From the sequence record OP114734.1: a stretch of DNA of 64,000 nucleotides; one strand, 5' to 3'. Positions 7,582-58,635 of the stretch are shown in pieces (the stretch's first letter is position 1; every line of letters starts with the position of its first letter). Under the pieces are notes generated by a model. That model did not search any database. It saw only the letters and a list, made by a program, of their open reading frames with translations, and was not told where the DNA came from. The translations under genes were made by a program, and so were the position numbers. The stretch comes from Escherichia phage vB_ESM-pEJ01.

Positions 7582-7610
7582 ATTATGATATATCCCCGAT
7601 CCAATGTCAA
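7582..7610 (-). promoter_or_regulatory. early-type promoter cassette (-35 TTGACA, 17-nt spacer, -10 CATAAT) with GGGGA/TCCCC hairpin
   Basis: Minus strand TTGACA at 7610..7605 and CATAAT at 7587..7582; followed by conserved leader CATCGAAAACAAAAGG. Confidence 0.55.
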
Positions 7611-7617
7611 CAGATTT

Positions 7618-7917
7618 TTAATCTTTTTTCAGTGCATCCATTACTCGCTCTGCGATCAGTTCTCGTAAGCACTGATAACCATGATATTTGATGGCAATGT
7701 CACGCAGATCATTAACCAGTTCCCGTACTTCATGGTCTTTCAGATCGTCTCTGTATTTCGATTTAACCGTGTCTTTAGGTGGATTGTGGATAACCTGAAA
7801 ACCTTGTTCTGCAATCACTGCGGCTTCGCGCTGGCGTTCATGTTGTACTGTATTTTTGATCAGGTCTGCTTCCATGAACTTTGCCATACTCATCATCATG
7901 TTATTCTTTTTGCTCAT
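7618..7917 (-). CDS. hypothetical protein (99 aa)
   Basis: Track ORF 7618..7953 trimmed: its first ATG lies inside the promoter -10; internal ATG (MSKKNN..) has GAGGA RBS. Confidence 0.45.
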   Translation of the reverse strand: MSKKNNMMMSMAKFMEADLIKNTVQHERQREAAVIAEQGFQVIHNPPKDTVKSKYRDDLKDHEVRELVNDLRDIAIKYHGYQCLRELIAERVMDALKKD

Positions 7918-7952
7918 TATTAAATCCTCATAAAAGAAAAGGGAGACTCCCA

Positions 7953-7979
7953 TTATAGAGAATCTCCCTTGTATGTCAA
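7953..7979 (-). promoter_or_regulatory. early-type promoter cassette with GGGAGA/TCTCCC hairpin over -10
   Basis: TTGACA at 7979..7974, TATAAT at 7958..7953, 16-nt spacer. Confidence 0.55.
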
Positions 7980-8539
7980 CTAAAATTTAAAGATGCAAAC
8001 TCCCCGTGATGAATTTTTGCATATTCATCATATGCTCTAGCGGCTTCCTCCTGAGTAGCAAACGATCCTATGTATTTTCTGTATCCGTTTATCCTTATTT
8101 GTGCTTGCCACGGTCTTTTGCTAGATCCTTTGCGATGAGTAACACCATTATATATGCTCGTGCACCCGTCCATTTTCTTTTTATTGTACATGTTTTGTTG
8201 TTGTGTTGCCTCCCGTAAATTTGGTGGATTGTTGTTTTCTGGATTCCCGTCTATGTGGTCTATTACCTTAACCTGTGTTCCATATTCAAGAAACCAGACA
8301 ATTCTATGTACAAGATATGTAGATGTTCTCTTTTTAACCTTATTGTAAACATCTATTGCCAAATGACCGTAATTTAACTTTTTTGTTTTTACTTTATCAC
8401 CGACTCGGTAGAAATATCCCTCTGGTAGACCATTAAAAGACGGACTATTTGTTTTGTGATATAGAACACCTTCCGTGTGTTCAAATCTGCGTTTTAATTC
8501 CTCTTGAATTTCAGTATTCCAAAATTTCGCACTTTTCAT
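7976..8539 (-). CDS. HNH homing endonuclease with C-terminal AP2 DNA-binding domain
   Basis: HNH_3 motif VDHIDGNPENNNPPNLREAT; AP2-like YNGVTHRKGSSKRPWQAQIRINGYRKYIGSFATQEEAARAYD; free-standing between rIIA.1 block and topoisomerase gene. Confidence 0.8.
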   Translation of the reverse strand: MKSAKFWNTEIQEELKRRFEHTEGVLYHKTNSPSFNGLPEGYFYRVGDKVKTKKLNYGHLAIDVYNKVKKRTSTYLVHRIVWFLEYGTQVKVIDHIDGNPENNNPPNLREATQQQNMYNKKKMDGCTSIYNGVTHRKGSSKRPWQAQIRINGYRKYIGSFATQEEAARAYDEYAKIHHGEFASLNFS

Positions 8540-8540
8540 A

Positions 8541-19601: not shown

Positions 19602-19915
19602 ACGTAGCCCCCAACTACACGCATAACAAAGGTCTTGAGTTTATACCAGAAAGTTTCTTTTTTCAACTTTTCTTCTGCTTCTTTGATCTGCGCGGTTAAC
19701 GCCTTAATGACGTGTGGATATACCACATCACGATCTGACGGCGTGGAGTAGTCGACCACAATACCTTTAGTGTCTGGATCGTATTCAACATTATGAATAT
19801 AGACAATATGATGTTCTCCCTCTTCATCAACAATTATCAGTTCCTGAATAACTGTCTTCATTGCTTCTTGAATCAAGCTGTGTGCTTCTTCTAAACTTGT
19901 TGGTTTCTTATCCAT
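19598..19915 (-). CDS. hypothetical protein (T4 gene 40 position)
   Basis: ORF between 41 and uvsX; GAGAGGA RBS. Confidence 0.4.
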   Translation of the reverse strand: MDKKPTSLEEAHSLIQEAMKTVIQELIIVDEEGEHHIVYIHNVEYDPDTKGIVVDYSTPSDRDVVYPHVIKALTAQIKEAEEKLKKETFWYKLKTFVMRVVGGYV

Positions 19916-19941
19916 AATATAATCCTCTCAGTCAAAATATC

Positions 19942-19970
19942 ATTTTACTACTTTAATTATTCTATGTCAA
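19942..19970 (-). promoter_or_regulatory. early-type promoter (-35 TTGACA, 17 nt, -10 TAAAAT)
   Basis: Overlaps stop of HNH gene; feeds ORF 19598..19915. Confidence 0.5.
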
Positions 19971-21839: not shown

Positions 21840-22067
21840 CTATTCAGTTAATCCGTAATACTTTAATTGCTTCATTGTTATTCGATCTTTGTAGTGCTCT
21901 TGAATTAACTTTTTCATCACATCAACATCGATCGTCACAAATACTTCGTTGCTGTGATTTCCGTGAACTTTCTTGAAATGCTCTATGCCTTCCTCACGTT
22001 CACGTTTAATCTTTTCAATGTCTCTCATAATATATTTCTCACATTGGCGGGTATCGTAACCCAACAC
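21840..22067 (-). CDS. hypothetical protein (75 aa)
   Basis: Only ORF between uvsX and gene 43. Confidence 0.4.
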   Translation of the reverse strand: MLGYDTRQCEKYIMRDIEKIKREREEGIEHFKKVHGNHSNEVFVTIDVDVMKKLIQEHYKDRITMKQLKYYGLTE

Positions 22068-22089
22068 CCGCCATTATACACACTTTATC

Positions 22090-24768
22090 TTAAATGTCAA
22101 ACAGGTCCGTAAGCGATGCCACCTTTTCATATTGCAGCTTTGCAGCCGTGGTAATGTTCTCCAGTGGTTTGACGAAAGTCTTATTAAACAACAAAGGCCA
22201 GTCCAACCACTTCAACACCTCTGATTCAATTTCTGGAGGAATACGAGTACCAGACAACCAACCAAAACAGATTTCTCCAAACGGATTTCGATCTTTAAGC
22301 GGTACAATCATAACCTTCTCGCCTTCACGAATCGGATCTAGTCCGAATTTTCGAGCATTACGATTATAACACAATACACTCTTAACCGCATACGGACAAC
22401 CCTTAATCGGATACCCGTTTGAATCGCTGTATTTCTGTAGGTTGTTTGCAGATGATACCGCAGCAACATCAAGATAGTCAAGTTTTCTAAATTCTTGCTC
22501 AAAAATACCGTAGTATTCCTGCAATGACTCTTCACCTTCCTGCAACATACGGCGAATACATTCTTTCAGTGATTTCTGACATGCTTTAGGGGTGGAGCTA
22601 CGTTGCGTTTCCAAGCCCATGATTTTTAGCTTAGGTTCAGCAAAGCGCGTTCCTTCCATATCCCAAACATTAAGAGCATAACGCTTTTTGCCAGTCCAGA
22701 ATCCACCGATACCCGCAGATTTCAACGGAGGACCAGCAATTGCCTCACGGTCCATAAACATCAAGTGCTCATAGTTGTTCATGTACTCGCATAACTCGCG
22801 ATATCCCTTGTCGATAATAGGTTCCATTCGATGTTTACCGAAATTATCAAGGAAGTCAACAAGTTTTTCGGTATCGTCGAAACGATCTTCCCCGCCAACC
22901 TTATCAACAACATTGTTAACCAGCACATAAACGGAGTCAGTATCACAATAACGAACATATGCAAAATCGGTTGTTCCGCAAAGCTCGTTTAAGTATTCGT
23001 TAATCTTACGCTCAATCCACTGAATTGCAAGCTGACCGAACAGTGTGATCGCACTAGCGTTACGGAGATCATAAAAACGGAATTTAGGATTCCCCAACGC
23101 ACCATAAAGTGAGTTGATCAAAACTTTTCGAGAAAGCTGGTTTGTATTGCACAAGATCGACTCGTCTTTACATTCTTCCAGCAATTTCTCTAAGGTATCT
23201 TTGCTTAATTCAGAAAGCATCGATTTAAACGCTTCATCGAAGTCGTGACGCACTTCAACGCTATAGCTAATGGTTCCCCCATAAACATGATTTTCATCGT
23301 GTAGAATCGCTTTACATAGTTCAGCATTGCGATCACATGCCAACATCATGTTTTTGTACTGCTTACGCTGATCGAATACCTTTTTAATCTCAATCGGTAC
23401 GATACCATGAATATCTTTTCTATACATCCATCCGTTAGGCGAGCAAGAATACTCATCACTCGGACGTGGTGCAGTTTTATTGATATACTCGTGCATCGGT
23501 GCAGCATCAAAAGATCCAGCGATTGTTTCAGGAGAAATATTAACCTGTCGAATAATAGATGGGTACAGACTTGTTAAGTCAAAGCTCATCATCCAACGGT
23601 AAGCATTTGGCACAGGTTCTTTTACAAATGCGCCTGGATACGTCTGCTTAGGCTGTATCTTATTTTCCGGTACTACTTTACCCTCAGCTTTCAGAGATCC
23701 GAAGATAATAGCATCCCATACTTTCATCGGGTTATAAACATGGTTAAATTTAATCTTTGCATAGAAACATAGACTATACACAAGATCGATAAATCCACGC
23801 TTTTTATCAATCGCCAGCACACGATCAACGTCGCCGATGTTATAATCGATGTAAAGTTGATGGTTGTCATCACGCAATTTCTTTAACGGACCATCATAAT
23901 CAACCTTACCGATTCCTGTCTCATATTCAGCAACATAATCTAACGCATATGTTGGTTGAGTCGTAAAGCTAAATTTCTTGTACAGGTCAATATAATCAAG
24001 GCTTTCGATCCCCATGATCGTAAATGCTTCACGCTCGTTGCCAAAATCATCCTGTGAGATTCTGGATTTAATCTTACCGCACGGGCTTAGACGGTTAGCG
24101 GTTCTACTTCCGAACTTATTACTGATACGTTTAATGATATATGGAATATCGAATGTTTCTGTGTTCCAGCCAGTGAAACCAACGGGTCGGTTTTCCTCAA
24201 AGAATCGGATGTATTCTAACAGCAATTCATCTTCTGTGTCATAGACGTTATAAACAACGCGCTCTACAATATCAGGTCGAAGAATAGACTTGCTTGCTTC
24301 CCAGATTTCACCGTTTTTTCCTTTCAAATCAAATACAAAGAAACGATCATGTACGGAATCATAATGCGTAATTGCATCGATAGGATATTTCGCTTCTTCT
24401 GGTTTAGGAAATTCTGGGGCAGTGACCTCAATATCAACCCATGCTACACGGATTTTATTTCGGTCATATCGAATCTCGCCTTTATACGTATCAGACAGAT
24501 AGGAGATGATAAAATCATCCATCCCTAGTGCCTCCTGCCCCATTTCTCCCATCTTTTTACGCCATTTGTTGGCCTCGTTCATAGATGGGAATTTTTTAGC
24601 AATGCAAGGCTTGCCATAGATATCTTTATAATTCGTAACCATACCAGGCGCGGCATGATGAAATAATGTTGGCGTATATTCAACGTAACGCTCTTGTTCT
24701 TGTCCAGCATCATCAATATAACGCTCGTAGATCTTATCACCTACTCGCTCACATGACAGAAAATACAT
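22090..24768 (-). CDS. 43: DNA polymerase (family B, T4 gp43 homologue)
   Basis: Exo and pol motifs (DIEVT, YGDTDS, KKRYA, SLYPSII); start set to ATG MYFLSC.. with GAAGGAG RBS (track start 24798 is GTG inside leader). Confidence 0.9.
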   Translation of the reverse strand: MYFLSCERVGDKIYERYIDDAGQEQERYVEYTPTLFHHAAPGMVTNYKDIYGKPCIAKKFPSMNEANKWRKKMGEMGQEALGMDDFIISYLSDTYKGEIRYDRNKIRVAWVDIEVTAPEFPKPEEAKYPIDAITHYDSVHDRFFVFDLKGKNGEIWEASKSILRPDIVERVVYNVYDTEDELLLEYIRFFEENRPVGFTGWNTETFDIPYIIKRISNKFGSRTANRLSPCGKIKSRISQDDFGNEREAFTIMGIESLDYIDLYKKFSFTTQPTYALDYVAEYETGIGKVDYDGPLKKLRDDNHQLYIDYNIGDVDRVLAIDKKRGFIDLVYSLCFYAKIKFNHVYNPMKVWDAIIFGSLKAEGKVVPENKIQPKQTYPGAFVKEPVPNAYRWMMSFDLTSLYPSIIRQVNISPETIAGSFDAAPMHEYINKTAPRPSDEYSCSPNGWMYRKDIHGIVPIEIKKVFDQRKQYKNMMLACDRNAELCKAILHDENHVYGGTISYSVEVRHDFDEAFKSMLSELSKDTLEKLLEECKDESILCNTNQLSRKVLINSLYGALGNPKFRFYDLRNASAITLFGQLAIQWIERKINEYLNELCGTTDFAYVRYCDTDSVYVLVNNVVDKVGGEDRFDDTEKLVDFLDNFGKHRMEPIIDKGYRELCEYMNNYEHLMFMDREAIAGPPLKSAGIGGFWTGKKRYALNVWDMEGTRFAEPKLKIMGLETQRSSTPKACQKSLKECIRRMLQEGEESLQEYYGIFEQEFRKLDYLDVAAVSSANNLQKYSDSNGYPIKGCPYAVKSVLCYNRNARKFGLDPIREGEKVMIVPLKDRNPFGEICFGWLSGTRIPPEIESEVLKWLDWPLLFNKTFVKPLENITTAAKLQYEKVASLTDLFDI

Positions 24769-24800
24769 AATATAAACTCCTTCATTTACGAAAGACACTC

Positions 24801-24829
24801 ATTATAGGGGAATCGACCTAGTTTGTCAA
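24801..24829 (-). promoter_or_regulatory. promoter upstream of gene 43 (-35 TTGACA, 17 nt, -10 TATAAT) flanked by GGGG/CCCC
   Basis: Minus strand TTGACAaactaggtcgattccccTATAAT. Confidence 0.55.
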
Positions 24830-24850
24830 TACCCCTATCCCATCAGTATC

Positions 24851-31347: not shown

Positions 31348-31604
31348 ACAGACCCCATAGATCCACGCGCAATAACATTCTGGGTAATATCAGCAACCTT
31401 ACGGGATACGATGTTTGTTAGCCCCTCTTTGGTGATATTTTCACGATCAAATGGGATTTCGTCATGAGTCCACAAACCATAGTTAGACCGAAATGATAGC
31501 ATATACTGACCATCTCGCACAACCTCAAATACATGGATCTTAGTGAATTTCGATAAACCTTCGTTGATTTCTTTCAGTGCATTAGTAATCATAACAACCT
31601 CCAA
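31344..31604 (-). CDS. hypothetical protein (86 aa)
   Basis: ORF downstream of promoter 31617..31645. Confidence 0.4.
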   Translation of the reverse strand: MEVVMITNALKEINEGLSKFTKIHVFEVVRDGQYMLSFRSNYGLWTHDEIPFDRENITKEGLTNIVSRKVADITQNVIARGSMGSV

Positions 31605-31616
31605 TCAATTTTTAGA

Positions 31617-31645
31617 GAGTATAACGGGGATTTCTCCCCGCGTCA
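31617..31645 (-). promoter_or_regulatory. promoter cassette (-35 TTGACG, 17 nt spacer = GGGGA/TCCCC hairpin, -10 TATACT)
   Basis: Directly after gene 47 stop. Confidence 0.5.
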
Positions 31646-31646
31646 A

Positions 31647-38869: not shown

Positions 38870-39080
38870 TTACCCCGAACTCGTTTACAATCTGCGCTTT
38901 ATAGTAACCACCGCGAGATGCTAATAGATAAGCTGGGCTTAGGTATTCGTATTCACGGATTTCTACTTGTGCGTTTTCAGTTTCCCAAATCAGTAAAGTC
39001 CACATATTTGATTCTCCTGTAAAGTTGTATCTCGTCTTGATGAATATAGTATAGGGGATCTCGCGATCCCCGTCAAGCAT
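38853..39080 (-). CDS. hypothetical protein (75 aa)
   Basis: ORF. Confidence 0.4.
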   Translation of the reverse strand: MLDGDREIPYTIFIKTRYNFTGESNMWTLLIWETENAQVEIREYEYLSPAYLLASRGGYYKAQIVNEFGVIEYEF

Positions 39081-40036: not shown

Positions 40037-40173
40037 AGTTCCTCTAATAAAAAACTTTCCTTTAAATTAAAACTAGCCAATGTGCTAGCGTGCATTTTAA
40101 CAACAACACCATCGCCAATTTCCAGTTTACGAAGTTTAACTTCTTTGCTCAGTACACAAAACATCATCATCAT
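39979..40173 (-). CDS. hypothetical protein (64 aa)
   Basis: Has its own PeSL-like promoter and conserved leader CACATCGAAAACAACGAGAGGA before ATG. Confidence 0.4.
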   Translation of the reverse strand: MMMMFCVLSKEVKLRKLEIGDGVVVKMHASTLASFNLKESFLLEELWLISAGVKAKEHKSVAFA

Positions 40174-40202
40174 GTTGTCCTCTCGTTGTTTTCGATGTGA
40201 GC

Positions 40203-40230
40203 ATTATACATTAGCTAATCATGTTGTCAA
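40203..40230 (-). promoter_or_regulatory. early-type promoter (-35 TTGACA, 16 nt, -10 TATAAT)
   Basis: Immediately after nrdD terminator. Confidence 0.5.
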
Positions 40231-40240
40231 CACCCCAAAA

Positions 40241-40268
40241 CGAAAAAGCCGACCCTTTCGGATCGGCT
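40241..40268 (-). terminator. rho-independent terminator after nrdD
   Basis: AGCCGATCC-gaaagg-GTCGGCT hairpin followed by TTTTTCG. Confidence 0.6.
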
Positions 40269-42180: not shown

Positions 42181-42675
42181 TTATTTTACCAGTTCTGCTA
42201 ATTCTTTTTCTTTAGCTTCTAGTTCAGCTTTAAGCTGTTTAATCTCTTGTCGCTTCTTATTAGCGGCTTCTTGCTTACTATTTCGGATAACCTGATCTAG
42301 ATACAACTCCCAATCCTGAATATTTTTGATAATGTAACCGTCAACATTAATTGGTCGGAGATTCAGTACAGCTTCCAGTTTAGTTGCAAAAACTTTAATT
42401 GCTGGTGTGAAGTATTCATACTCGTTATCTTCAAACCAATAACCTAGACTTGCATTCTCAATACGAAGATGAAGTTTAAGATCAAGGTCTTTATCTTCGG
42501 TGTAAAGATCTTTCACCTGACCCAGCGAACTAACAACAACTTTAAAACGAATTTTATCTACACCACCAAACACATCAGTAAGTATACCAGCAATTGAGCT
42601 ATTAGCGCAAGATTGGTCGCTGAATGCGTCAAGGTTTTCTTTAGTTACAGTATACCAAACATCTTGTACCCACAT
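42181..42675 (-). CDS. paralogous-family protein, array 2 member H
   Basis: IRFKVVVSSLGQV module and K/E coiled-coil tail. Confidence 0.45.
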   Translation of the reverse strand: MWVQDVWYTVTKENLDAFSDQSCANSSIAGILTDVFGGVDKIRFKVVVSSLGQVKDLYTEDKDLDLKLHLRIENASLGYWFEDNEYEYFTPAIKVFATKLEAVLNLRPINVDGYIIKNIQDWELYLDQVIRNSKQEAANKKRQEIKQLKAELEAKEKELAELVK

Positions 42676-42705
42676 AATATAATCCTCTCATTGTTAAGTG
42701 GGAGT

Positions 42706-42733
42706 ATTATAGCATACTCCCTTCGCATGTCAA
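42706..42733 (-). promoter_or_regulatory. promoter cassette with GGGAGTA/TACTCCC hairpin over -10
   Basis: TTGACA 42733..42728, TATAAT 42711..42706. Confidence 0.55.
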
Positions 42734-43908
42734 GCACTAACTTTTTTCTTTACTGCTTTCACCTTCTGGCGAATTGCTCGAATCTCTTCGATCTCTTTTT
42801 CAGTCTCTTTAACAATTTCTTTGCGATTCTGAATATCTGTATCTAGATTATCATCAAGTTTAGGCAGCATGTCAATCAAGAACTTTTTAAAGTCTTTCAG
42901 GTTTCGGATAACAGCACCTTCACCCATTACCGCCACGCCTACACCATCCGGCAGATCACCAAACAGCTTAACCAGTTCAGACAGATGATCATGATCTTCT
43001 AGTGCTTCTTCCGGTTCAGATGGCAGTTCAACAAAGTTATAACGTTCATCATTGCTGATCAAGTGATACCAGCAAAGCCCGAAAGATTTCGGTGTATATT
43101 CTACACCATCAATTTCAACCGCGTCAACACTTCCATAATCATCTACTTTAGTTACCTTAAATCCTTGTCCCAGCTTTTGAACAATTTCAACAACATGACT
43201 TGATACAGTTTCAGCGGTAAACCAATATGGCAAATTATGCTGATTTGGTTTGTAGCGTTCACCTACTTTAAATCTCTGACCATCCGCTTGCATAGAATGA
43301 AATTGTTGTTTCGTGATTTCCGCGAAGTATTCAAATTCGCTACCGTCAAACAAGCAATTCCATTGATCACAAAAACGATCTGCCTTAACAGTTTCACCTT
43401 TCGCGGTGATCATGGTAGCTGATCCGTGCAATTCTTCTTCAACTAAAAAGCCATATTCGACAAAATCAACAAGTTTCATAGCTTCTTTGTGATCTGGATC
43501 ATGCTCTCCCCAGAATCGCTTAAATTCTTGCAAACCTTCTGGGGTAAACGAATAACATTTACCTTTTTCAAAGTAAGTCGGCATTGCATCCTCTTTCTTG
43601 TTCATCGCTTCGTATGCCTCTTTTGAGATACGTTTAAAGAATTTACGCTCATCGTGCATAATCATAGTAGCCCAATAATAAACGATATCCTCAGCGGAAT
43701 AAACTACATCTCCAGCTTCAATAGTAATAACATGACCGTGGTCATCTTTTTCTAATACTTTAAAGCCCTTTTCTACGATTTCAGCAACCCGAATATGACC
43801 ACGGCGCGAAGCATCGGTCAGAATAATTGAATAGCGAGAAAAGTCTAGAAACTCATCTTTACCGCCTTCACGGAATGCATAGTAATGACCTTCAAAGAAT
43901 TTAGCCAT
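42730..43908 (-). CDS. paralogous-family protein, array 2 member G (three module copies)
   Basis: GFKVLEKDDHGHVITIEAGD.., GFKVTKVDDYGSVDAVEIDG.., ERKFFKRIS. Confidence 0.5.
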   Translation of the reverse strand: MAKFFEGHYYAFREGGKDEFLDFSRYSIILTDASRRGHIRVAEIVEKGFKVLEKDDHGHVITIEAGDVVYSAEDIVYYWATMIMHDERKFFKRISKEAYEAMNKKEDAMPTYFEKGKCYSFTPEGLQEFKRFWGEHDPDHKEAMKLVDFVEYGFLVEEELHGSATMITAKGETVKADRFCDQWNCLFDGSEFEYFAEITKQQFHSMQADGQRFKVGERYKPNQHNLPYWFTAETVSSHVVEIVQKLGQGFKVTKVDDYGSVDAVEIDGVEYTPKSFGLCWYHLISNDERYNFVELPSEPEEALEDHDHLSELVKLFGDLPDGVGVAVMGEGAVIRNLKDFKKFLIDMLPKLDDNLDTDIQNRKEIVKETEKEIEEIRAIRQKVKAVKKKVSA

Positions 43909-43939
43909 AATATAATCCTCTCGTTGTTTAGACGGGAGT

Positions 43940-43968
43940 ATCTTACTACTCCCGTTTCATCATGTCAA
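43940..43968 (-). promoter_or_regulatory. promoter cassette with GGGAGTA/TACTCCC hairpin over -10
   Basis: TTGACA 43968..43963, 17 nt, TAAGAT 43945..43940. Confidence 0.55.
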
Positions 43969-44549: not shown

Positions 44550-44818
44550 TTCACTAATTGAACAGCACGGAACAGAATGCGCTCACACGGAAGCAGCATA
44601 AATTCCCAACGCGGATCAAAGTCTTTAGCGGTGTATGTTTTCCCATCAACCGAGATTTCACTTACATAACCAACAGGTGACACTTTAAGAACAGTAAACC
44701 CATTCTTGATGACTTCGTAGGTATCTTTCACCCCTTCGTATTCATCATCTAAGAAGTCTTTATGTGCTTGCTCAGATTTAAAAACATAGGCAACACCGGA
44801 TTTAAACATCTTACGCAT
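44546..44818 (-). CDS. paralogous-family protein, array 2 member E (single module)
   Basis: GFTVLKVSPVGYVSEISVDGKTY; track start 44878 lies in promoter, ATG MRKMF has AAGGAG. Confidence 0.5.
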   Translation of the reverse strand: MRKMFKSGVAYVFKSEQAHKDFLDDEYEGVKDTYEVIKNGFTVLKVSPVGYVSEISVDGKTYTAKDFDPRWEFMLLPCERILFRAVQLVK

Positions 44819-44849
44819 TGTTGATTCTCCTTCTTGATTAGATGGGAGT

Positions 44850-44878
44850 ATTTTACTACTCCCATTTCTTATTGTCAA
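44850..44878 (-). promoter_or_regulatory. promoter cassette with GGGAGTA/TACTCCC hairpin
   Basis: TTGACA 44878..44873, 17 nt, TAAAAT 44855..44850. Confidence 0.55.
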
Positions 44879-48460: not shown

Positions 48461-48769
48461 TTATTTCACGTTAACGCCGTTATCAATCCAGCCGACGCTA
48501 TTTGGTTTAACAGTTTTACCATAGGATGCATACTTAATCAAGCATGGTTTAACATTGTTATCAAATCTTCCTAAGCGTACTCCCAAATCAGGAATATCCA
48601 TGTATGCGGCTTTATATCCCCATGTACCGTATTCAGAATCAATCTCAACCGGACGGCCTTTAAAAGCATACACTACACCGTGACGGTCAACGATAACATA
48701 GCGATAGCCAGCCGGAAGATACACAGTTTCGCCGTAAACTTTAACTGGAGTAGCAGAAGAGATAAACAT
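48461..48769 (-). CDS. hypothetical protein (102 aa)
   Basis: Track start 48805 lies in promoter -10; ATG MFISSATP preceded by conserved leader and GAGGA. Confidence 0.45.
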   Translation of the reverse strand: MFISSATPVKVYGETVYLPAGYRYVIVDRHGVVYAFKGRPVEIDSEYGTWGYKAAYMDIPDLGVRLGRFDNNVKPCLIKYASYGKTVKPNSVGWIDNGVNVK

Positions 48770-48803
48770 AATATAATCCTCACATCGTTCATTTGATGCG
48801 GTC

Positions 48804-48832
48804 ATTATATGATAACCGCATTTTCATGTCAA
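48804..48832 (-). promoter_or_regulatory. early-type promoter (-35 TTGACA, 17 nt, -10 TATAAT)
   Basis: Minus strand TTGACA 48832..48827, TATAAT 48809..48804. Confidence 0.5.
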
Positions 48833-49158: not shown

Positions 49159-49437
49159 TTACATGTCTTGCAGTGCATAAAAGCATTTTTCTTCATAGTC
49201 ATAGAAAATGTCAAAGTATGCTTTTTCCACATACTCGCCATTAATCCAAGCGGCAGTAACAATCAGAGTGGTCCAGGTAGATCCGCTCTCAACGGTAAAG
49301 GTTTTAATACCCAGCTTCGCTGCCAAGTCGAACGCAAACCGGACGCAACCACGACAGGAAGTGATGTTGGAAGTTTTGATTTTAAAGCCACCGCGAGTTT
49401 TAGAAATTTCTACTTTAGCGAAAGACAGGTTGCTCAT
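49159..49437 (-). CDS. hypothetical protein (92 aa)
   Basis: AAGGAG RBS; downstream of promoter 49480..49508. Confidence 0.45.
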   Translation of the reverse strand: MSNLSFAKVEISKTRGGFKIKTSNITSCRGCVRFAFDLAAKLGIKTFTVESGSTWTTLIVTAAWINGEYVEKAYFDIFYDYEEKCFYALQDM

Positions 49438-49479
49438 TTTGATTCTCCTTAAGAAAGTGTGTTTCGTTTTGATGTGTGT

Positions 49480-49508
49480 AGTATAGGGGATACGTGATCC
49501 CCTGTCAA
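49480..49508 (-). promoter_or_regulatory. promoter cassette; spacer is a perfect GGGGATCACGTATCCCC hairpin
   Basis: TTGACA 49508..49503, 17 nt, TATACT 49485..49480. Confidence 0.55.
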
Positions 49509-51266: not shown

Positions 51267-51528
51267 TACATGCTTTTAATGCATCGGTCGCGGTGTCATA
51301 GCGAGTATTATCATAGCACCAATAACCATCTGTCAACTGATAAATTAATCCATCCTTTTTAGCTTCGATGAAAGACAATTCTTTGAAAGTTTCTACTTTC
51401 TTTGCTGATACTCCACGGTCACGGCGCTTATAGAGTTTAGCCAAAATGCGTTCAGCTTGTTCCTCTTTATCGCCAGACAGATCCCAGATGATGTTTCTGA
51501 TATGCTTGATTAATTGTTCAGTGGTCAT
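51238..51528 (-). CDS. hypothetical protein (96 aa)
   Basis: ORF downstream of promoter 51558..51585. Confidence 0.4.
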   Translation of the reverse strand: MTTEQLIKHIRNIIWDLSGDKEEQAERILAKLYKRRDRGVSAKKVETFKELSFIEAKKDGLIYQLTDGYWCYDNTRYDTATDALKACNDHLRKTTI

Positions 51529-51557
51529 ATTTGATTATCCTTAGTTGGTATGCGTGC

Positions 51558-51585
51558 ATTATAGCATTGTGATTATCTTTGTCAA
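51558..51585 (-). promoter_or_regulatory. early-type promoter (-35 TTGACA, 16 nt, -10 TATAAT)
   Basis: Follows terminator 51590..51624. Confidence 0.5.
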
Positions 51586-51589
51586 CACC

Positions 51590-51624
51590 CAAAAACAAAA
51601 AAGGCTACCCCGAAGGATAGCCCA
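51590..51624 (-). terminator. rho-independent terminator after glycine-rich gene
   Basis: GGGCTATCC-ttcg-GGGTAGCC hairpin followed by TTTTTTGTTTTT. Confidence 0.6.
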
Positions 51625-52460: not shown

Positions 52461-52682
52461 TTAGATGATCTCTGCTTCACCATTCAGGAAGAAAGACCAT
52501 GTTTTGTTAGGATAGCGAAGCGCCCATGATTCAGCGGTTTTAACACCAGCTTCGAACAATTGACGGCTGGTTACTTTCGCCATACCATCTTCAATGTCAA
52601 CGTTTTCAATAATCATCGGGTACTTAGCGCCACGCATGAAACCGAAGCCAGCGGAAGATTTGATAATTTTAACAGTTGCCAT
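52461..52682 (-). CDS. hypothetical protein (73 aa)
   Basis: Start set at MATVKII (ATG 52682) downstream of promoter 52723..52751. Confidence 0.4.
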   Translation of the reverse strand: MATVKIIKSSAGFGFMRGAKYPMIIENVDIEDGMAKVTSRQLFEAGVKTAESWALRYPNKTWSFFLNGEAEII

Positions 52683-52722
52683 TTTGATTCTCCTAGAAAG
52701 TGTATCTCGTTTCGATGGGTAT

Positions 52723-52751
52723 ATTATGCAATAACACCGGATCGCTGTCAA
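52723..52751 (-). promoter_or_regulatory. early-type promoter (-35 TTGACA, 17 nt, -10 CATAAT)
   Basis: Minus strand TTGACA 52751..52746. Confidence 0.5.
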
Positions 52752-53056: not shown

Positions 53057-53403
53057 GCCAGACCTCGCAAAACACTAATAGCATAATCATGCTGGTTATT
53101 CATAATATCAATTGCATTGTGATAACGAGCTAAACCATCAAGGATAAATTCTTGTTTATCCTGTTTCAGTTTGGTATCACGCGCAGCCATAAGAGCATCA
53201 AGAACAGGTCCAAAGTGATTATCTAATTCATCTTCGGTTGCAATGTTTCCTATTGCCTCGTCGATCCGTGATTCTAATGCTTGCTTTTCGTTGATCACTT
53301 GCTGGGTATATTCCAACACATCAAGAATATCGCGGGTAACGTCGCCATGATAAGGTATTCCCGCATGAAGATGATCAATTAATCGCTGAATATCAATGTT
53401 CAT
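53053..53403 (-). CDS. hypothetical protein (116 aa)
   Basis: ORF. Confidence 0.4.
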   Translation of the reverse strand: MNIDIQRLIDHLHAGIPYHGDVTRDILDVLEYTQQVINEKQALESRIDEAIGNIATEDELDNHFGPVLDALMAARDTKLKQDKQEFILDGLARYHNAIDIMNNQHDYAISVLRGLA

Positions 53404-53738
53404 TTGTAACCCTCCTCTGAAAGCACATCCCAGATCGTTGAGTCAAGGTGCATTAAATTCCACATAATAGAGTCATAACTACCGAAGCCAGAAGTAAAAA
53501 TTACATCACACTGGCGATAGGTCTTATGAAAATCGGTGGCTGTCTCTGCATCAATCGGCATATCGTCACCTGAAAGCACCAGACATTTAAGAATCATAAC
53601 TCTGTTAGCCGTTGGCGCTTGCTTAGTCTTTTCAGCATATTTTTCGATGATCTGTTTTGCCTTTTCTTCTTTGATACGTCCAGACCAAATCCGGTTTCGG
53701 TATTGATTCATAATAATTTCAATCACATCATTTTGCAT
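53400..53738 (-). CDS. hypothetical protein (112 aa)
   Basis: ORF. Confidence 0.4.
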   Translation of the reverse strand: MQNDVIEIIMNQYRNRIWSGRIKEEKAKQIIEKYAEKTKQAPTANRVMILKCLVLSGDDMPIDAETATDFHKTYRQCDVIFTSGFGSYDSIMWNLMHLDSTIWDVLSEEGYK

Positions 53739-53937
53739 TCTTCACGGTCTCCATAATTGTTTTGTAAGCCAGCTTAAGATGATCACCGAAAAACTTTGCA
53801 GTGTTACCCTTCGGATCGCGGAGCATGGTTTCTACGATCTCATCGGCAGTAACAATTTCTCCTTTCTTTGCTGCATGTTCTACCATATACTTCAAAGTTT
53901 CTTCGGAGGCAAGTGCTGCGGCCACTGGATTAATCAT
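53728..53937 (-). CDS. hypothetical protein (69 aa)
   Basis: AAGGAG RBS; first gene after promoter 53967..53995. Confidence 0.4.
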   Translation of the reverse strand: MINPVAAALASEETLKYMVEHAAKKGEIVTADEIVETMLRDPKGNTAKFFGDHLKLAYKTIMETVKNAK

Positions 53938-53966
53938 TTTGATTCTCCTTTGTTGTCGATGTGTGC

Positions 53967-53995
53967 ATTATGCTATACCCTATTCCGGTTGTCAA
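53967..53995 (-). promoter_or_regulatory. early-type promoter (-35 TTGACA, 17 nt, -10 CATAAT)
   Basis: Conserved leader CACACATCGACAACAAAGGAG follows. Confidence 0.5.
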
Positions 53996-54000
53996 CACCT

Positions 54001-54031
54001 AAAAACGAAAAAGCCACCCTTTCGGATGGCT
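54001..54031 (-). terminator. rho-independent terminator
   Basis: GCCATCC-gaaa-GGGTGGC hairpin followed by TTTTTCGTTTTT. Confidence 0.6.
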
Positions 54032-54264
54032 TTTGATTATATTTTATTCACGTCCATTTGTATAGTAGTGTTTGAATCGACCTTTGCTAAACTAGTTAAA
54101 CATAGTAACCAATTCACCATCCCTTTCCAATGATAACCCTTCCTCGTCTTAGACGGGTCTTCCGATTCGGCAGTAATTGAACACGCGAAAGTATGAGGAA
54201 GCCAAATAGTTGTGTTAATGCTAGTATTCTTTTACTTCTGGTATGCATCCCACGGTGACTAACA

Positions 54265-54663
54265 TTAAGACAGTCGAGTGAGTTTATAAATTGTTTTAAA
54301 ACATAGAGCTTTGATATCGTCTAAAACGCTCTGTAACGAGCTATCAACATCATTATAAATCTCACTAGCCATTTGCGTTAACTCTTGCAAATAGGCAATT
54401 TCGCTAATCTCCTTGCGGACGACCAACGTTGGCTGATAACGACCAGTGATCCCAATATTGGTTTCAGTGAAATCATCAACCAATTCTTGCATTTCAAGAT
54501 AGAACTCTTCTAGAGCCTTATGTTTTGCATAAGATCCAGGACCAGTTACCCCAAAATGCGCAGAATGCATATAAGTAACACTCATCAGACATTCACCGAT
54601 AAAGCGGTCAACTTTATTATCTTTTCCCTCTTCGGACGTCTTTCGAAAATCACTGAATTTCAT
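54265..54663 (-). CDS. hypothetical protein, possibly ferritin/Dps-like four-helix bundle
   Basis: Start at MKFSDF (GGAG RBS); segment HSAHFGVTGPGSYAKHKALEEFYLEMQELVDDF loosely resembles Dps HW..G..F...H..LEE motif. Confidence 0.3.
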   Translation of the reverse strand: MKFSDFRKTSEEGKDNKVDRFIGECLMSVTYMHSAHFGVTGPGSYAKHKALEEFYLEMQELVDDFTETNIGITGRYQPTLVVRKEISEIAYLQELTQMASEIYNDVDSSLQSVLDDIKALCFKTIYKLTRLS

Positions 54664-54952
54664 GTTCTCGATTCTCCATATTATGCAACATAACAAACTG
54701 TTGTGCGGCATATTCCCCCATAATAAAACACTGCTTAGAATCCATACATTTACTACGAGCATACATCTTCATAATATGGGCATGAAATTTCTGGCTGGTT
54801 TCAATGGAAGGAGATATTTTGTTTACATATACTATCATTGCACCGTCGAAATAATCAGTAAAGTCACCAGTTGGATCATATTGATCAGCACTGACACTTC
54901 CGACCGCAGTCAAGCATATTGCCGCTGTTAGAGTTTTACGAATAAATGACAT
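54650..54952 (-). CDS. secreted/periplasmic hypothetical protein
   Basis: N-terminal signal peptide MSFIRKTLTAAICLTAVGSVSA. Confidence 0.45.
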   Translation of the reverse strand: MSFIRKTLTAAICLTAVGSVSADQYDPTGDFTDYFDGAMIVYVNKISPSIETSQKFHAHIMKMYARSKCMDSKQCFIMGEYAAQQFVMLHNMENREHEIQ

Positions 54953-55020
54953 AAGTCATTCCCCCAGATTAAAAATATTCAGTTATATTTATAATCTGGG
55001 GCTTTATTTATGATTAACTC

Positions 55021-55617
55021 TTATTTGGTAGTACCGTCAATAAAATGTTTACGGCACACAGAGACATATTTATCCTCTGCACCAACTTCTATTTGAGCAC
55101 CATCGCGAATAACATTACCCTCTTTATCTACACGAAGGACCATTGTTGCTTTCTTGCCACAATGACAAATACCCTTCATTTCGACCAGTTTATCAGCAAA
55201 TGCCATTAATGCCGCAGATCCTTCAAATAGATTGCCCTGAAAGTCGGTGCGAAGGCCATAGCACAGTACAGGGATATTTGCATCATCGACAAGCGCACAC
55301 AAGCCTAAAACATGCTCTTTAGTCATAAATTGGGCTTCATCTACAAATACAGCATCAGGACGCCATCGATCCGGTCTACGCTTACCTAACGATTCACGAT
55401 AAACCAAATCGAAAAGATCATCCGATTCAGTGAAGGTGATCGCTGGAGCACTTAGGCCAATTCGGGAAACAACTTCACTTTCTGAATCTCGATTATCAAT
55501 CGCTGGCTTAAGAATTAATACTCGCATATCACGTTCGGTATAGTTATAAGCACTTTGTAACAGAGAAGTTGATTTGCCAGCGTTCATAGATGCATAGTAG
55601 AAATATAGTTGCGCCAT
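55021..55617 (-). CDS. tk: thymidine kinase
   Basis: Walker A ASMNAGKST, DEAQF, C-terminal zinc ribbon CHCG...CRKH. Confidence 0.85.
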   Translation of the reverse strand: MAQLYFYYASMNAGKSTSLLQSAYNYTERDMRVLILKPAIDNRDSESEVVSRIGLSAPAITFTESDDLFDLVYRESLGKRRPDRWRPDAVFVDEAQFMTKEHVLGLCALVDDANIPVLCYGLRTDFQGNLFEGSAALMAFADKLVEMKGICHCGKKATMVLRVDKEGNVIRDGAQIEVGAEDKYVSVCRKHFIDGTTK

Positions 55618-55910
55618 TAATTAATCTCCAAAAATCCAGCAAGACCTAAACCGATATAAGTCCAGATACAAAGGAAAAAGAAGCAAACACCCATAGCAAA
55701 GATAAATCCGCGTAGTGTCTTTGGATAACCTACCCAATATTCCCGACCATCTTCTAACCGGATCAGCTTATTTCCTTGAGAGTCCATATCAATTACAACA
55801 TGTTTATTTCTGGATTGTAACAGATATTGCTTGACAATCTCAATACCCGCCACAATAACAATAACGAAATTGAAAGTCCACATAACAAGATTAATGATAG
55901 TCTCAAGCAT
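55617..55910 (-). CDS. hypothetical membrane protein
   Basis: Two TM helices. Confidence 0.4.
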   Translation of the reverse strand: MLETIINLVMWTFNFVIVIVAGIEIVKQYLLQSRNKHVVIDMDSQGNKLIRLEDGREYWVGYPKTLRGFIFAMGVCFFFLCIWTYIGLGLAGFLEIN

Positions 55911-56145
55911 TTTCTATCACCTCCACCCAATCAGGTGTTTCCTGAAAGACTCCTTCGCCTTCATGATGGTCGCAACCTTTATTGCTACAATACATCCACC
56001 AATCCCACATTCCCCACGGTAAACGCTGCATATCGTCGTTACAGCAAGTGAAGATGATAGGCCAACCACATCTAACACATCGGCAGTTTTCTTTCATGTG
56101 AGCGGTATTAGGCTTCTTCATAGATGACTCCAATATAATCGACAT
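55903..56145 (-). CDS. hypothetical Cys-rich (zinc-binding) protein
   Basis: CRCVRCG...CC...C..GC. Confidence 0.4.
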   Translation of the reverse strand: MSIILESSMKKPNTAHMKENCRCVRCGWPIIFTCCNDDMQRLPWGMWDWWMYCSNKGCDHHEGEGVFQETPDWVEVIENA

Positions 56146-57139: not shown

Positions 57140-57730
57140 TCAATAGCGTTTAGTCTTAAGAATGCCTTTACTCTTTAGATGGTTAGCCTTTTTTAGTACG
57201 TCATCAGCATAACCTAATCCGGCTTTATAGTTCCATCCAGCATTGTAAGAAGCTAGCGCGAGTCGGATATTACCGTTTCGAACATCCAGCCAGTATGCTA
57301 ACTCATCCATCGCGTAGAATGCAGAAACCTCGCGATTCATGATAAAGTTGATAGTCTGGCGATCACTCATTTTAACACCGAGCTTTGCATTTTTCGCTTT
57401 CACCGTTTTAAGGTAATTTTGAAACAATCCATAAGCATGATGATTTTTCTTTGGTGCTAAGTTTGCACCCGCGCTTGATTCTTGCCATGCGATACCCGCC
57501 AGGATGTGGCCTAAACCCTTTCCGTTATAGCGAATATTCGGATGGTCCTTTTTCAACTTACCGCTTTTCTCGAATTGCTCGCCGTATTGATAGGCGAAAT
57601 GTAAATTATCTAGTTGGTGTGCTGTAAAGTTGTCTATCGGCGCTTTTTTGATCGGTGCGCTAGTCGATGCGTGTGTAGCACCAACGGCTAGTGACAGACT
57701 CAATACTATCGCTTTTAGAACTTTTAACAT
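57140..57730 (-). CDS. lytic transglycosylase (SLT domain) with N-terminal signal/SAR-like segment
   Basis: SLT motifs AWQESS, YGLFQ, SYNAGWNY; N-terminus MLKVLKAIVLSLSLAVGATHA rich in small residues. Confidence 0.6.
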   Translation of the reverse strand: MLKVLKAIVLSLSLAVGATHASTSAPIKKAPIDNFTAHQLDNLHFAYQYGEQFEKSGKLKKDHPNIRYNGKGLGHILAGIAWQESSAGANLAPKKNHHAYGLFQNYLKTVKAKNAKLGVKMSDRQTINFIMNREVSAFYAMDELAYWLDVRNGNIRLALASYNAGWNYKAGLGYADDVLKKANHLKSKGILKTKRY

Positions 57731-57815
57731 TAATTTCTCCTGTTTGGCTTAACTTTCTGATTCCATAATATAGCCCTATCACCAGAAAGTCAAGCATTAA
57801 TTTAACCAATTTCCA

Positions 57816-58238
57816 TTATTGGTCTACCTTCAAAACAACCGCCGACATTTTACCCGCCAGTCGTTTTGGATTCTCTATAATCATTCGGCAGCATAGACCG
57901 TGATATGGCTTACCCTCTTCGATTAGATCTACTGTCATCCCGATCCACATGTTACCATCAGTAATTTCTAATCGATTAGGTCGGTCTTCCATTTTCAGGA
58001 AGTCGAAGATCTCCGGCAAACGAGTTTCTATCTTATTGAATAGTTCCATTGTCTTATGTTCATCGATATGACGATCGGTTAGACGGTCGATCATATGCGG
58101 ACTAAAGCGAATGAAAATATACTCACCGTAACCATCATTCAAGCACTTTTCTTTGATCTGCGCATTGGTTTTGCGCATTTCGGTTTCGAAGAATCTACGC
58201 AGCTTACTACGGCGAACATGTACGTTAATTGTTTCCAT
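57816..58238 (-). CDS. regB: RegB-like sequence-specific endoribonuclease
   Basis: RLEITDGNMWIGMTV and LCCRMII..RLAGK parallel T4 RegB; start at METINV. Confidence 0.7.
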   Translation of the reverse strand: METINVHVRRSKLRRFFETEMRKTNAQIKEKCLNDGYGEYIFIRFSPHMIDRLTDRHIDEHKTMELFNKIETRLPEIFDFLKMEDRPNRLEITDGNMWIGMTVDLIEEGKPYHGLCCRMIIENPKRLAGKMSAVVLKVDQ

Positions 58239-58242
58239 TTTA

Positions 58243-58578
58243 TTATCCTTTCTTAAACAAATTGCGAAGCCAGTATACAAACGGGATTTCTTTAAACTTG
58301 AATTTCTCTATAGTTAATTCTTTAGTAGCAAGATGAATACCATAAGCATCATGTGTCACGATATGCCATTTTCTATAGTCCAAATGTGAACAACCGTCTG
58401 GATCTAGGTTAATAAGAGTTTCTCGCTCACTAGGATTATTTTTCCACAATTTTGTAATAGGATCGCACATAATTCGACCTAGCGTACCATGAATAATCTC
58501 ACAACGGTAAAGTTTTCCAGCAGTGAGATAGGCGCACCCGTCATAGTCGGTATAAACAAACACTTCTTTAACACTCAT
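58243..58578 (-). CDS. paralogous small protein (DGC.HL family, two repeats)
   Basis: YDGCAYL and DGCSHLDYRKW; start at MSVKEV after promoter 58607..58635. Confidence 0.45.
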   Translation of the reverse strand: MSVKEVFVYTDYDGCAYLTAGKLYRCEIIHGTLGRIMCDPITKLWKNNPSERETLINLDPDGCSHLDYRKWHIVTHDAYGIHLATKELTIEKFKFKEIPFVYWLRNLFKKG

Positions 58579-58606
58579 TTTAATACTCCTTTGTTTCGAT
58601 GGGGGT

Positions 58607-58635
58607 ATATTACTACCCCCGTTTTGTTGTGTCAA
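58607..58635 (-). promoter_or_regulatory. promoter cassette with GGGGGTA/TACCCCC hairpin over -10
   Basis: TTGACA 58635..58630, 17 nt, TAATAT 58612..58607. Confidence 0.55.

Follow-up and report, generated by a model that had tools for sequence, protein, structure and literature searches.

Early promoter sites in the window

The window analysed here, 64 kb of the genome of Escherichia phage vB_ESM-pEJ01 (OP114734.1), contains 22 intergenic sites at which TTGAC(A/G/T) is followed by a 16-17 nt spacer and a TAnnnT-type -10 hexamer, all on the minus strand. A first-pass annotation had counted at least 17 copies. Its 17 coordinates were all real, each marking the last base (within 2 nt) of a minus-strand -10 hexamer, and an independent scan returned second-hexamer ends at 58607, 53967, 52723, 51558, 49480, 48804, 44850, 43940, 42706 and 40203, identical to the earlier list. 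TTGACA (TTGACG at 31646), the 16-17 nt spacer and the TAnnnT-type -10 were present at 17/17. Five more sites had been missed, which we name by their -35 coordinate (57793, 39076, 22100, 533 and 260). Half of the 22 sites (11) lie between 40 and 59 kb of the window, among hypothetical ORFs.

The window shares 95-98% DNA identity with RB49, phi1, JSE, GEC-3S and ~55 other genomes. By this measure the phage is a Krischvirus, an RB49-like T4-type coliphage, bearing out the RB49-type lineage proposed initially. The suggested resemblance to the promoter-early stem-loops (PeSLs) of such phages was also confirmed. A published PeSL comprises a sigma70-consensus promoter, an AT-rich upstream region, an upstream stop codon, and an SD and start codon, with a stem-loop, often polyG...polyC, in any of five positions that define five subclasses (PMC2839356). 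Published PeSLs cluster in hyperplastic regions of RB49/phi1-type genomes, 5' of ORFans, and breakpoints of insertions, deletions and replacements between near relatives fall within them. We found here the sigma70 promoter, the AT-rich upstream sequence with its stop, the stem-loop, the SD and start, the genome context and the junctions of that definition; in particular, sites 24829 and 22100 bracket gene 43, as published for PeSLs. The window units are very probably PeSLs of RB49/phi1-type phages, genus Krischvirus.

These promoter/hairpin/leader units are real, and are already described and partly tested in RB49 and phi1. It was Arbiol et al. (2010, Genome Biol Evol 2:140, PMC2839356) who gave PeSLs their name and classes in this lineage and tested them in part, and the public GEC-3S genome already carries annotations of the orthologous promoters and terminators. 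Since PeSLs are known in RB49/phi1 and the window phage is closely related to both, the finding is correct but not new; its main value is confirmation, and it carries little weight as a discovery. The sites are as follows.

58576..58635, minus: PeSL, -10 in loop; hairpin 58620..58601 GGGGGTA/TACCCCC, dG -12.5, core z -5.4; 5' of ORF095 homologue
57728..57793, minus: early promoter TTGACT-17-TATTAT, weak long-range fold only; 5' of vs.1; outside the earlier list
53935..54034, minus: PeSL, canonical terminator upstream (54034..54009 and T-run); -35 at 53995
52680..52751, minus: promoter and leader of the spacer-hairpin family, hairpin decayed GCGATCCGGTGTTATTG
51526..51623, minus: PeSL, terminator upstream (51623..51602 and T7); downstream of the g38 adhesin gene
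49435..49508, minus: PeSL, spacer hairpin GGGGATCACGTATCCCC; near-identical to the tested phi1 PeSL206/205 and 211/210
48767..48832, minus: PeSL, -10 in loop; ten-bp stem ATGCGGTTAT/ATGACCGCAT; G:T to A:T in orthologues
44816..44878, minus: PeSL, -10 in loop, GGGAGTA/TACTCCC, stem-loop 44865..44842; 5' of ORF060; left boundary of a cassette that KFS-EC has lost
43906..43968, minus: PeSL, -10 in loop; C:G to T:A compensatory stem change in orthologues; 5' of frd.2; right boundary of the cassette that KFS-EC has lost
42673..42733, minus: PeSL, -10 in loop GGGAGTAT/ATACTCCC; upstream stop is the TGA of TTGACA
40171..40268, minus: PeSL, terminator upstream (40268..40247 and T-run); after nrdD
39003..39076, minus: PeSL, spacer hairpin GGGGATCGCGAGATCCCC; outside the earlier list
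31590..31646, minus: PeSL, spacer hairpin CGGGGAGAAATCCCCG; -35 is TTGACG
24766..24838, minus: PeSL, hairpin ATAGGGG...CCCCTAT around the -35 and spacer, dG -16.5; 5' of DNA polymerase gene 43
22026..22100, minus: PeSL, hairpin GGCGGGT...ACCCGCC just past the -10; gene 43 3' end; outside the earlier list
19913..19970, minus: hairpin-free promoter; 5' of gene 40
14931..14995, minus: PeSL, leader hairpin and T7 (14966..14943), 3' arm holds the SD; 5' of modB
14366..14426, minus: hairpin-free promoter; 5' of srd
7915..7979, minus: PeSL, -10 in loop; thirteen-bp stem, then T-rich tail; dG -20.7
7549..7610, minus: PeSL, -10 in loop GGGGATAT/ATGTCCCC, one G:T pair
471..577, minus: PeSL, terminator upstream; left boundary of a one-ORF cassette that RB49 (OZ035808) lacks; beyond the span annotated earlier
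198..260, minus: PeSL, -10 in loop, GGGAGTA/TACTCCC; right boundary of the one-ORF cassette that RB49 (OZ035808) lacks; beyond the earlier span

The motif TTGACA-N16-18-TANNNT has 33 matches on the minus strand and none on the plus strand, compared with ~1.3 occurrences expected and a maximum of 5 in 100 second-order Markov simulations. An nhmmer profile of all 22 sites, which is circular for its own members, detected no other strong copy on either window strand. The promoter core is nearly invariant among orthologues in eight relatives, the -35 varying in 1/112 columns and the -10 in 2/105. The 20 nt upstream of the promoters are 72% A+T, against 60% window-wide. An upstream stop codon had been said often to overlap the -35; consistent with this, 13/22 sites have a stop within -11 to +7 nt of the first -35 base, and in three cases (43968, 42733 and 7979) the TGA of TTGACA itself serves as the stop. 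An SD and ATG follow 25-42 nt past the -10 at 21 of the tabulated sites, the ATG at 22100 lying at 44 nt.

The first-pass annotation had also quoted a conserved 20-nt leader. That string occurs only once at <=3 mismatches. Position counts anchored on the -10, used in place of the string search, did reveal a looser conserved pattern, namely a discriminator R-C-n-C-n-C followed by A-T-C-n-A-A-A, with single positions common to 11-19 of the 22 sites.

Hairpin positions and conservation

The sites had been described as sharing one architecture, which overstates their uniformity. Of the originally listed sites, 9/17 have a GC-clamped hairpin lying within the spacer or about the -10: the -10 lies in the hairpin loop at seven (58607, 48804, 44850, 43940, 42706, 7953 and 7582), and the hairpin lies in the spacer at two (49480 and 31617). 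Elsewhere the arrangement differs. The hairpin encloses the -35 at 24801 and lies in the leader at 14967, and no convincing hairpin was seen at 52723, 19942 and 14396. Three sites (53967, 51558 and 40203) have instead an upstream terminator with a T-run, so that the claim of many copies right after a terminator comes down to 3/17. Across all 22 sites a stem-loop is present at 18, with the -10 in its loop (8), in the spacer (3), over the -35 (1), upstream (4) or downstream (2), a range of positions in agreement with the five PeSL subclasses that Arbiol (2010) published. The four sites lacking a convincing hairpin, including 52751 where it has seemingly decayed, are taken as plain early promoters, indicating that the hairpin is dispensable for promoter function and the architecture not uniform.

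The 5' arm of every hairpin begins upstream of the predicted +1. The 8 nt following the spacer and -10 hairpins contain 0-2 T at 9/11 sites, with 4 T at 39076 and 6 T at 7979; by the canonical model, most of these hairpins should be weak intrinsic terminators since they have no U-tract behind them. Rfam at gathering thresholds and a tRNA scan over the window found nothing. The sites 26855 and 20789 were also considered as PeSLs and rejected; in each the hairpin lies wholly inside the putative transcript and the -35 inside a gene, and GEC-3S annotates only terminators at these positions.

Stable folds are concentrated at the intergenic promoters. Of these promoters, 11/22 fold at -10 kcal/mol or below; no other motif match does so (0/33; Fisher 6e-6), and among random 39-mers the share is 4.8%. 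In the -10-in-loop hairpins, the seven inner positions are 95-100% paired over 21 distinct sequences, each with 2-4 pair types, whereas pairing in slid registers is mostly far lower, with isolated pairs at 80-100%. Among orthologues in the eight relatives, 5.5% of stem columns vary compared with 41% of loop columns (p = 2e-5); the difference between stem and non-hairpin spacer (5.5% vs 10%) is not significant (p = 0.14). Stem substitutions are mostly wobble-compatible, and one is a complete C:G to T:A compensation. Judged by these comparisons, the hairpins are under selection, their complementarity evidently kept while the stem sequence varies and the loops are free to vary.

Junctions within PeSLs in related phages

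The eight relatives, drawn from an annotated phage collection, were also compared for indels. Four indel or rearrangement junctions fell within PeSLs. Two of these left clean chimeric PeSLs, with loss of window 43968-44834 in KFS-EC and of 233-470 in RB49 OZ035808. In LF73P4 (OZ035795.1, junction at 83,219), a candidate rearrangement breaks at the AT-rich margin of PeSL 49508, and in G37-3 the g38 cassette is swapped, with the junction in the leader of PeSL 51526..51623. A search of IMG/VR with the gp38 protein recovered 7 loci, mostly in other phages, with flanks lacking similarity. In all, 4 of ~9 non-endonuclease events have a junction inside a PeSL, and PeSLs make up ~3% of the window.

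Not all variation follows this route. The window's five largest insertions are HNH homing endonuclease genes, making these elements the source of the largest differences in the same comparison, and several other indels also lie off PeSLs. The hairpin-free promoter 19913..19970 sits within a 788-bp HNH endonuclease insertion that none of the relatives examined has, and another HNH insertion adjoins the -35 of PeSL 7915..7979. The apparent 2-kb insertion in Brandy, beside PeSL 53995, is not a PeSL event; Brandy has an intact 715-aa gene of which a 44-aa remnant is left in the window. PeSL recombination accounts for only part of the plasticity.

Since subfamilies share 60-90 nt of near-identical sequence, efficient homologous recombination could cross over between cassettes, and such a crossover would delete, insert or swap the ORFs they flank. 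Action of the hairpin at the RNA level, or a role as recombination site, was a proposal of the original authors (PMC2839356), and both had been raised again in the first-pass annotation. The chimeric junctions in relatives support its recombination part, and the clean ones, seen in genomes outside the original phi1/RB49 pair, support the idea of modular shuffling.

Proposed function and relation to known systems

Two phi1 PeSLs give experimental grounds for a function. A PeSL206/205 clone yielded ~13,000 Miller units, and the PeSL211/210 stem-loop GGGGATCGGTGATCCCC lowered lacZ expression about as much as rrnB T1 (PMC2839356), a terminator result obtained with one spacer-type stem-loop in a plasmid reporter. 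Window site 49508 has the same spacer-hairpin type as GGGGATCGGTGATCCCC, and its sequence closely matches the copies tested as promoter (206/205) and terminator (211/210). We propose that each cassette supplies a strong host-sigma70 early promoter, with AT-rich upstream sequence, GTTGACA, 16-17 nt, TATAAT and a C-rich discriminator, followed by a short leader, an SD and the start codon (ATG) of the gene downstream, mostly a small, uncharacterised one. A GC-clamped stem-loop is packed into or beside this promoter. As the predicted start lies inside or after the hairpin in every copy, the promoter's own RNA cannot fold it; the hairpin would form only on read-through RNA from the upstream gene, where it may serve as terminator, attenuator or protective 3' end, isolating each small transcription unit. 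The terminator/attenuator step, experimentally shown for one phi1 copy, is inferred for those in the window. Two hairpins score as plus-strand terminators, which raised the idea of antisense termination of late transcripts; this was rejected, that strand of the window containing no TATAAATA late-promoter motif. RNase III processing was set aside, stems of 7-13 bp being too short.

A different history would have ordinary early promoters and terminators squeezed together by genome compaction, with no selected cassette function and crossovers as a passive by-product of short repeats. This is possible, if somewhat doubtful. In its favour, the hairpin occurs in five arrangements and is missing from four promoters, the stop codons overlapping the -35 do show tight packing, the largest indels are homing endonucleases and not PeSL events, and <50 bp of homology suffices for T4-type recombination (PMC2839356). 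However, subfamilies share ~85-90 nt including non-functional leader, which points to entire cassettes having spread and away from promoters having evolved independently, and compaction sits less easily with 4 of ~9 non-endonuclease junctions falling in so small a part of the window. It differs from our explanation solely in whether mobility is selected, and sequence data cannot decide this.

Two further readings concern the hairpin itself. It could tune the promoter, a GC-rich spacer or discriminator setting open-complex lifetime, supercoiling or ppGpp sensitivity, with complementarity secondary. The discriminator is indeed C-rich (R-C-n-C-n-C) at promoters with and without a hairpin, and the 3' arm of the -10-in-loop hairpins is the discriminator itself. 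Yet a purely compositional role does not predict complementarity held while sequence varies (each position showing 2-4 pair types, and one change being compensatory), and hairpins upstream of the -35 or in the leader cannot alter spacer or discriminator properties, making tuning improbable. Alternatively, the -10 and spacer hairpins might act on DNA, as a cruciform or single-strand fold cut or bound by phage nucleases specific for junctions or palindromes (gp49 endonuclease VII, gp46/47). The hairpins would then perhaps not be terminators, and PeSLs would be active, targeted recombination hotspots instead of passive patches of homology. Most such hairpins lack a downstream U-tract and are poor canonical terminators, the inverted repeat is kept through sequence change, genes 49, 46 and 47 are at matching positions in relatives, and the original authors speculated that GGGG...CCCC is the target of a DNA-binding protein (PMC2839356). 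We nevertheless regard action on DNA as very improbable: extrusion is poor for stems of 7-13 bp with loops of 4-6 nt, and the crossovers lie at the AT-rich edge, spacer and leader, none at the hairpin itself. Moreover, the stems tolerate G:T-compatible changes, which suits folding of RNA or of a single strand better than it suits a cruciform, whose opposite strand would bear an A:C mismatch.

Among known systems, the window units stand nearest to the PeSLs of phi1/RB49 (PMC2839356), found in the same genus at orthologous positions, with the same components and gene 43 bracketed in the same way; in both, chimeric PeSLs mark gene gain and loss. We see no essential difference between them, the window representing another isolate at ~97% identity with 22 copies in 64 kb, in which homing endonucleases, and not ORFans flanked by PeSLs, make up the largest insertions. 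PeSL-like motifs of T4/PST and KVP40/nt-1 likewise combine promoter and stem-loop, flank variable genes and mark exchange points (Comeau et al. 2014, PMC4122927), and a composite promoter and stem-loop at exchange points is attributed to T-even internal-protein loci in the account that PMC2839356 gives of Repoila 1994. These analogues have T4-type early promoters and weaker AT-rich stems, whereas the window copies have the sigma70 consensus and GC-clamped stems. In IMG/VR, the exact form TTGACA-N9-GGGAGTAGTAANATACTCCC was found in Krischvirus-like contigs only. A broader likeness links PeSL cassettes to the morons of lambdoid phages and to integron gene cassettes, in which small accessory genes with their own promoter and terminator are gained or lost singly. 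To our knowledge, morons are not thought to move via their regulatory sequences. Integron cassettes depend on attC sites and an integrase dedicated to them, whereas the window cassettes have no associated recombinase and their junctions look like plain homologous crossovers.

Early promoters on the minus strand

In the first-pass annotation, 17 minus-strand sites were said to share a single architecture. Extraction of the minus strand at these coordinates confirmed the promoter part at all 17, with TTGACA (TTGACG at 31646), a spacer of 16-17 nt and a TAnnnT-type -10, of which the listed coordinate was the final base, within 2 nt, at every site. Sites are numbered here by the first T of the -35. 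The motif TTGACA-N16-18-TANNNT was found 33 times on the minus strand of the window and 0 times on the plus strand; chance expectation from 100 second-order Markov simulations was a mean of 1.3 and a maximum of 5. Restriction to intergenic motifs followed by an SD and an ATG defined a set of 22 promoters, comprising the 17 and five extra sites (57793, 39076, 22100, 533 and 260). A profile HMM built from the 22 and scanned over both strands recovered no additional strong copy. A+T content in the 20 nt preceding the -35 exceeded that of the window (72% vs 60%), and G directly preceded TTGAC at 14/22 sites. At 13/22, the stop codon of the upstream gene was no more than a few nt away from the -35, and at three sites this stop was the TGA within TTGACA itself.

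The conserved 20-nt leader described earlier turned out to be a composite, matching only once within 3 mismatches. Actual conservation is looser, consisting of a discriminator R-C-n-C-n-C and then A-T-C-n-A-A-A, single positions of which are common to 11-19 of the 22 sites. Ribosome-binding regions were of two recurrent kinds, AGGAGAATCAAAATG and GAGAGGATTATATTATG (for example, in the leaders at 53937-53965 and 43908-43935). Among tabulated leaders, GGAG (mostly AGGAGAATCAAAATG) was present at 13 sites and GAGG (mostly GAGAGGATTATATTATG) at 6. T4-type RegB cleaves the GGAG motif, and the two early-gene sets might differ in RegB sensitivity. A regB homologue is present in the window.

Position, conservation and proposed role of the hairpins

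The position of the hairpin varies between sites. An inverted repeat in the spacer or across the -10, as first described, was seen at nine of the 17 original sites and not at the other eight.

Hairpin position at the 22 promoters (first T of the -35)
58635, 48832, 44878, 43968, 42733, 7979, 7610, 260; minus; 6-nt loop with most of the -10, 3' arm forming the discriminator
49508, 39076, 31646; minus; hairpin within the spacer
24829; minus; hairpin around the -35
53995, 51585, 40230, 533; minus; canonical terminator with T-run upstream of the -35
14995, 22100; minus; hairpin immediately downstream of the -10
57793, 52751, 19970, 14426; minus; convincing hairpin absent

Site 52751 aligns with the spacer-hairpin family and has lost complementarity; evidently, loss of the hairpin has left its promoter and leader in place.

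The hairpins exceed chance. When the sequence that follows the -35, up to about +7, was folded, 11/22 intergenic promoters reached -10 kcal/mol or lower vs 0/33 other, mostly intragenic, motif matches (Fisher 6e-6); 4.8% of random 39-mers folded at -10 kcal/mol or stronger. Loop-anchored alignment of the eight -10-in-loop hairpins with the orthologous hairpins of eight relatives yielded 21 distinct sequences, in which the inner seven pairs were 95-100% paired with 2-4 pair types each; slid registers gave mostly much lower pairing, with isolated pairs at 80-100%. Variable columns among orthologues numbered 1/112 in the -35, 2/105 in the -10, and 9/163 in stems vs 9/22 in the loop outside the -10 (p = 2e-5). 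Stem substitutions were mainly wobble-compatible (G:T to A:T at 48832 and 7610, A:T to G:T at 44878), and a complete C:G to T:A compensation was found at 43968 in Brandy and KFS-EC. The stem at 43968 is degraded in ECD7.

Sister copies of these elements have strong promoter activity, and one spacer-type stem-loop lowers read-through about as much as rrnB T1 (PMC2839356). In 18/18 hairpin-bearing copies, the 5' arm starts upstream of the predicted +1, and therefore the promoter's own transcript cannot form the hairpin. From this geometry, the hairpin would form only on RNA arriving from upstream. The clearest case is 14995, upstream of modB, where a leader hairpin (14943-14966, minus) with a T7 run holds the SD within its 3' arm, and the neighbouring promoter is predicted to start within its 5' arm; termination or SD masking would there hit read-through RNA only. 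Canonical terminators make up the upstream group of four, and T-rich tails also follow the hairpins at 7979 and 14995. At the other seven -10-in-loop hairpins and the three spacer hairpins, the next 8 nt hold 0-4 T. The least secure step of the proposal is that these ten would terminate transcription instead of pausing it or stabilising 3' ends. It appears very improbable that hairpins devoid of a U-tract serve in targeted recombination at the DNA level. On the plus strand, two -10-in-loop hairpins score as hairpin plus T-tract terminators (58598-58623 and 44840-44867) because such hairpins have A-rich 5' flanks; the late-promoter motif TATAAATA does not occur on the plus strand of the window.

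Crossovers within the promoter cassettes and other differences among relatives

Comparison of the window with phi1, GEC-3S, RB49 (OZ035808), LF73P4, Brandy, KFS-EC, ECD7 and G37-3 revealed four events with a junction inside a promoter-early stem-loop (PeSL) cassette. KFS-EC is devoid of 43968-44834 (ORF059 and ORF060) and carries a single chimeric PeSL joining the upstream flank of 44878 to the leader of 43968; the two ORFs were lost by recombination between two of PeSLs 44878, 43968 and 42733. RB49 (OZ035808) is devoid of 233-470 (one ORF), replaced by a chimera of PeSLs 533 and 260. In G37-3, one spacer-hairpin PeSL (15941-15979 of its locus, L019) stands in place of a terminator-g38-terminator-promoter unit (window 51552-52461), with the junction within the shared leader CATACCAACTAAGG; its hairpin, CGGGGAGAAATCCCCG, is also found at 31646. 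The LF73P4 alignment breaks down completely at 49526, where PeSL 49508 has its AT-rich edge. What follows in LF73P4 is the gp30 ligase, rnlA, nrdB and pseT region, about 80 kb distant in RB49, and a 49508-type PeSL is joined to the gp30 ligase region at about 17219 of the LF73P4 locus L007 (OZ035795.1 position 83219). The junction reflects a large PeSL-mediated rearrangement or else a misassembly at the repeat. PeSL crossovers are real, and over-represented for elements making up roughly 3% of sequence.

In RefSeq relatives, frd.2 and the ORF059 homologue (42730-43908 and 43965-44549, minus) both carry the annotation goF mRNA metabolism modulator; immediately upstream of each is one of three near-identical -10-in-loop PeSLs (44878, 43968, 42733). 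The g38 adhesin gene is placed in the early hyperplastic region as terminator, gene, terminator, promoter.

PeSL crossovers account for only part of the variation among relatives. Pfam assigns the window's five largest insertions, measured against phi1 and RB49, to HNH homing endonuclease genes.

HNH homing-endonuclease ORFs (HNH_3, AP2, NUMOD4 or I-TevI DNA-binding)
7976-8539; minus; adjoins PeSL 7979
19957-20733; minus; adjoins PeSL 19970, missing from every relative examined at that locus
45663-46418; minus
59811-60404; minus
61684-62130; minus

Two alignments each were obtained for the duplicated segment 50169-50359 with phi1, GEC-3S, Brandy and KFS-EC, relatives having an extra paralogous small ORF (ORF073/074 region), a copy-number difference away from any PeSL. 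Near 11.4-11.7 kb the relatives differ in small ORFs, and at 54.1 kb the window has a gene remnant; these too are non-PeSL events. The remnant is a 44-aa ORF (54114-54248, minus), upstream of PeSL 53995, whose start and end match those of a 715-aa gene intact in Brandy (47245-49392 of its locus, L015; weak Ig_3 match), indicating that the window and phi1 hold an internal-deletion remnant.

Relation to the published PeSLs

By megablast against GenBank phages, window segments 40000-56000 and 1-25000 are 95-98% identical over almost their entire length to Escherichia phages ELT3, Sf20, GEC-3S, RB49, JSE, phi1, ECD7 and about 50 more, all of genus Krischvirus (RB49-like T4-type myoviruses). Window position 4781, at the end of rIIA, is equivalent to base 1 in both the phi1 and the RB49 record. 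The window contains the early replication and nucleotide-metabolism region, rIIB through rIIA, with nearly all ORFs on the minus strand and genes including topoisomerase, dda, gene 43, genes 45, 46 and 47, nrdD, g38, tk and regB. An Rfam search of the window returned zero matches and a tRNA scan zero tRNA genes, the latter in agreement with the report of RB49 as lacking tRNA genes (PMC1524935).

For phi1 and RB49, Arbiol et al. reported 52 and 51 PeSLs, respectively. These combine a promoter of sigma70 consensus with AT-rich sequence on its upstream side and a stem-loop, in many cases of polyG and polyC, and are limited by an upstream stop codon and a downstream SD and ATG. The stem-loop position defines five subclasses: between the boxes, over one or the other box, before the -35 or after the -10 (PMC2839356). 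The first-pass identification as PeSLs was borne out, all defining features open to testing at sequence level being present. PeSLs bracket gene 43 in that study (PMC2839356); the window counterparts of this pair are 24829 and 22100. The GEC-3S record carries promoter and terminator annotations at orthologous positions. From phi1, we retrieved for comparison the region with experimentally tested PeSLs: PeSL206/205 reads GTTGACAGGGGATCACCGATCCCCTATACT, the PeSL upstream of ORF210 GTTGACAGGGGATCGGTGATCCCCTTATAAT, and window site 49508 GTTGACAGGGGATCACGTATCCCCTATACT. The promoter of 49508 is common to both phi1 PeSLs, and about 40 nt of its leader to the ORF210 copy. In IMG/VR, the GGGAGTAGTAANATACTCCC form was found only in Krischvirus-like contigs. 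The window sites are the published PeSLs (PMC2839356), a known element correctly recognised in the same lineage that served to define it, and the finding is therefore already known.
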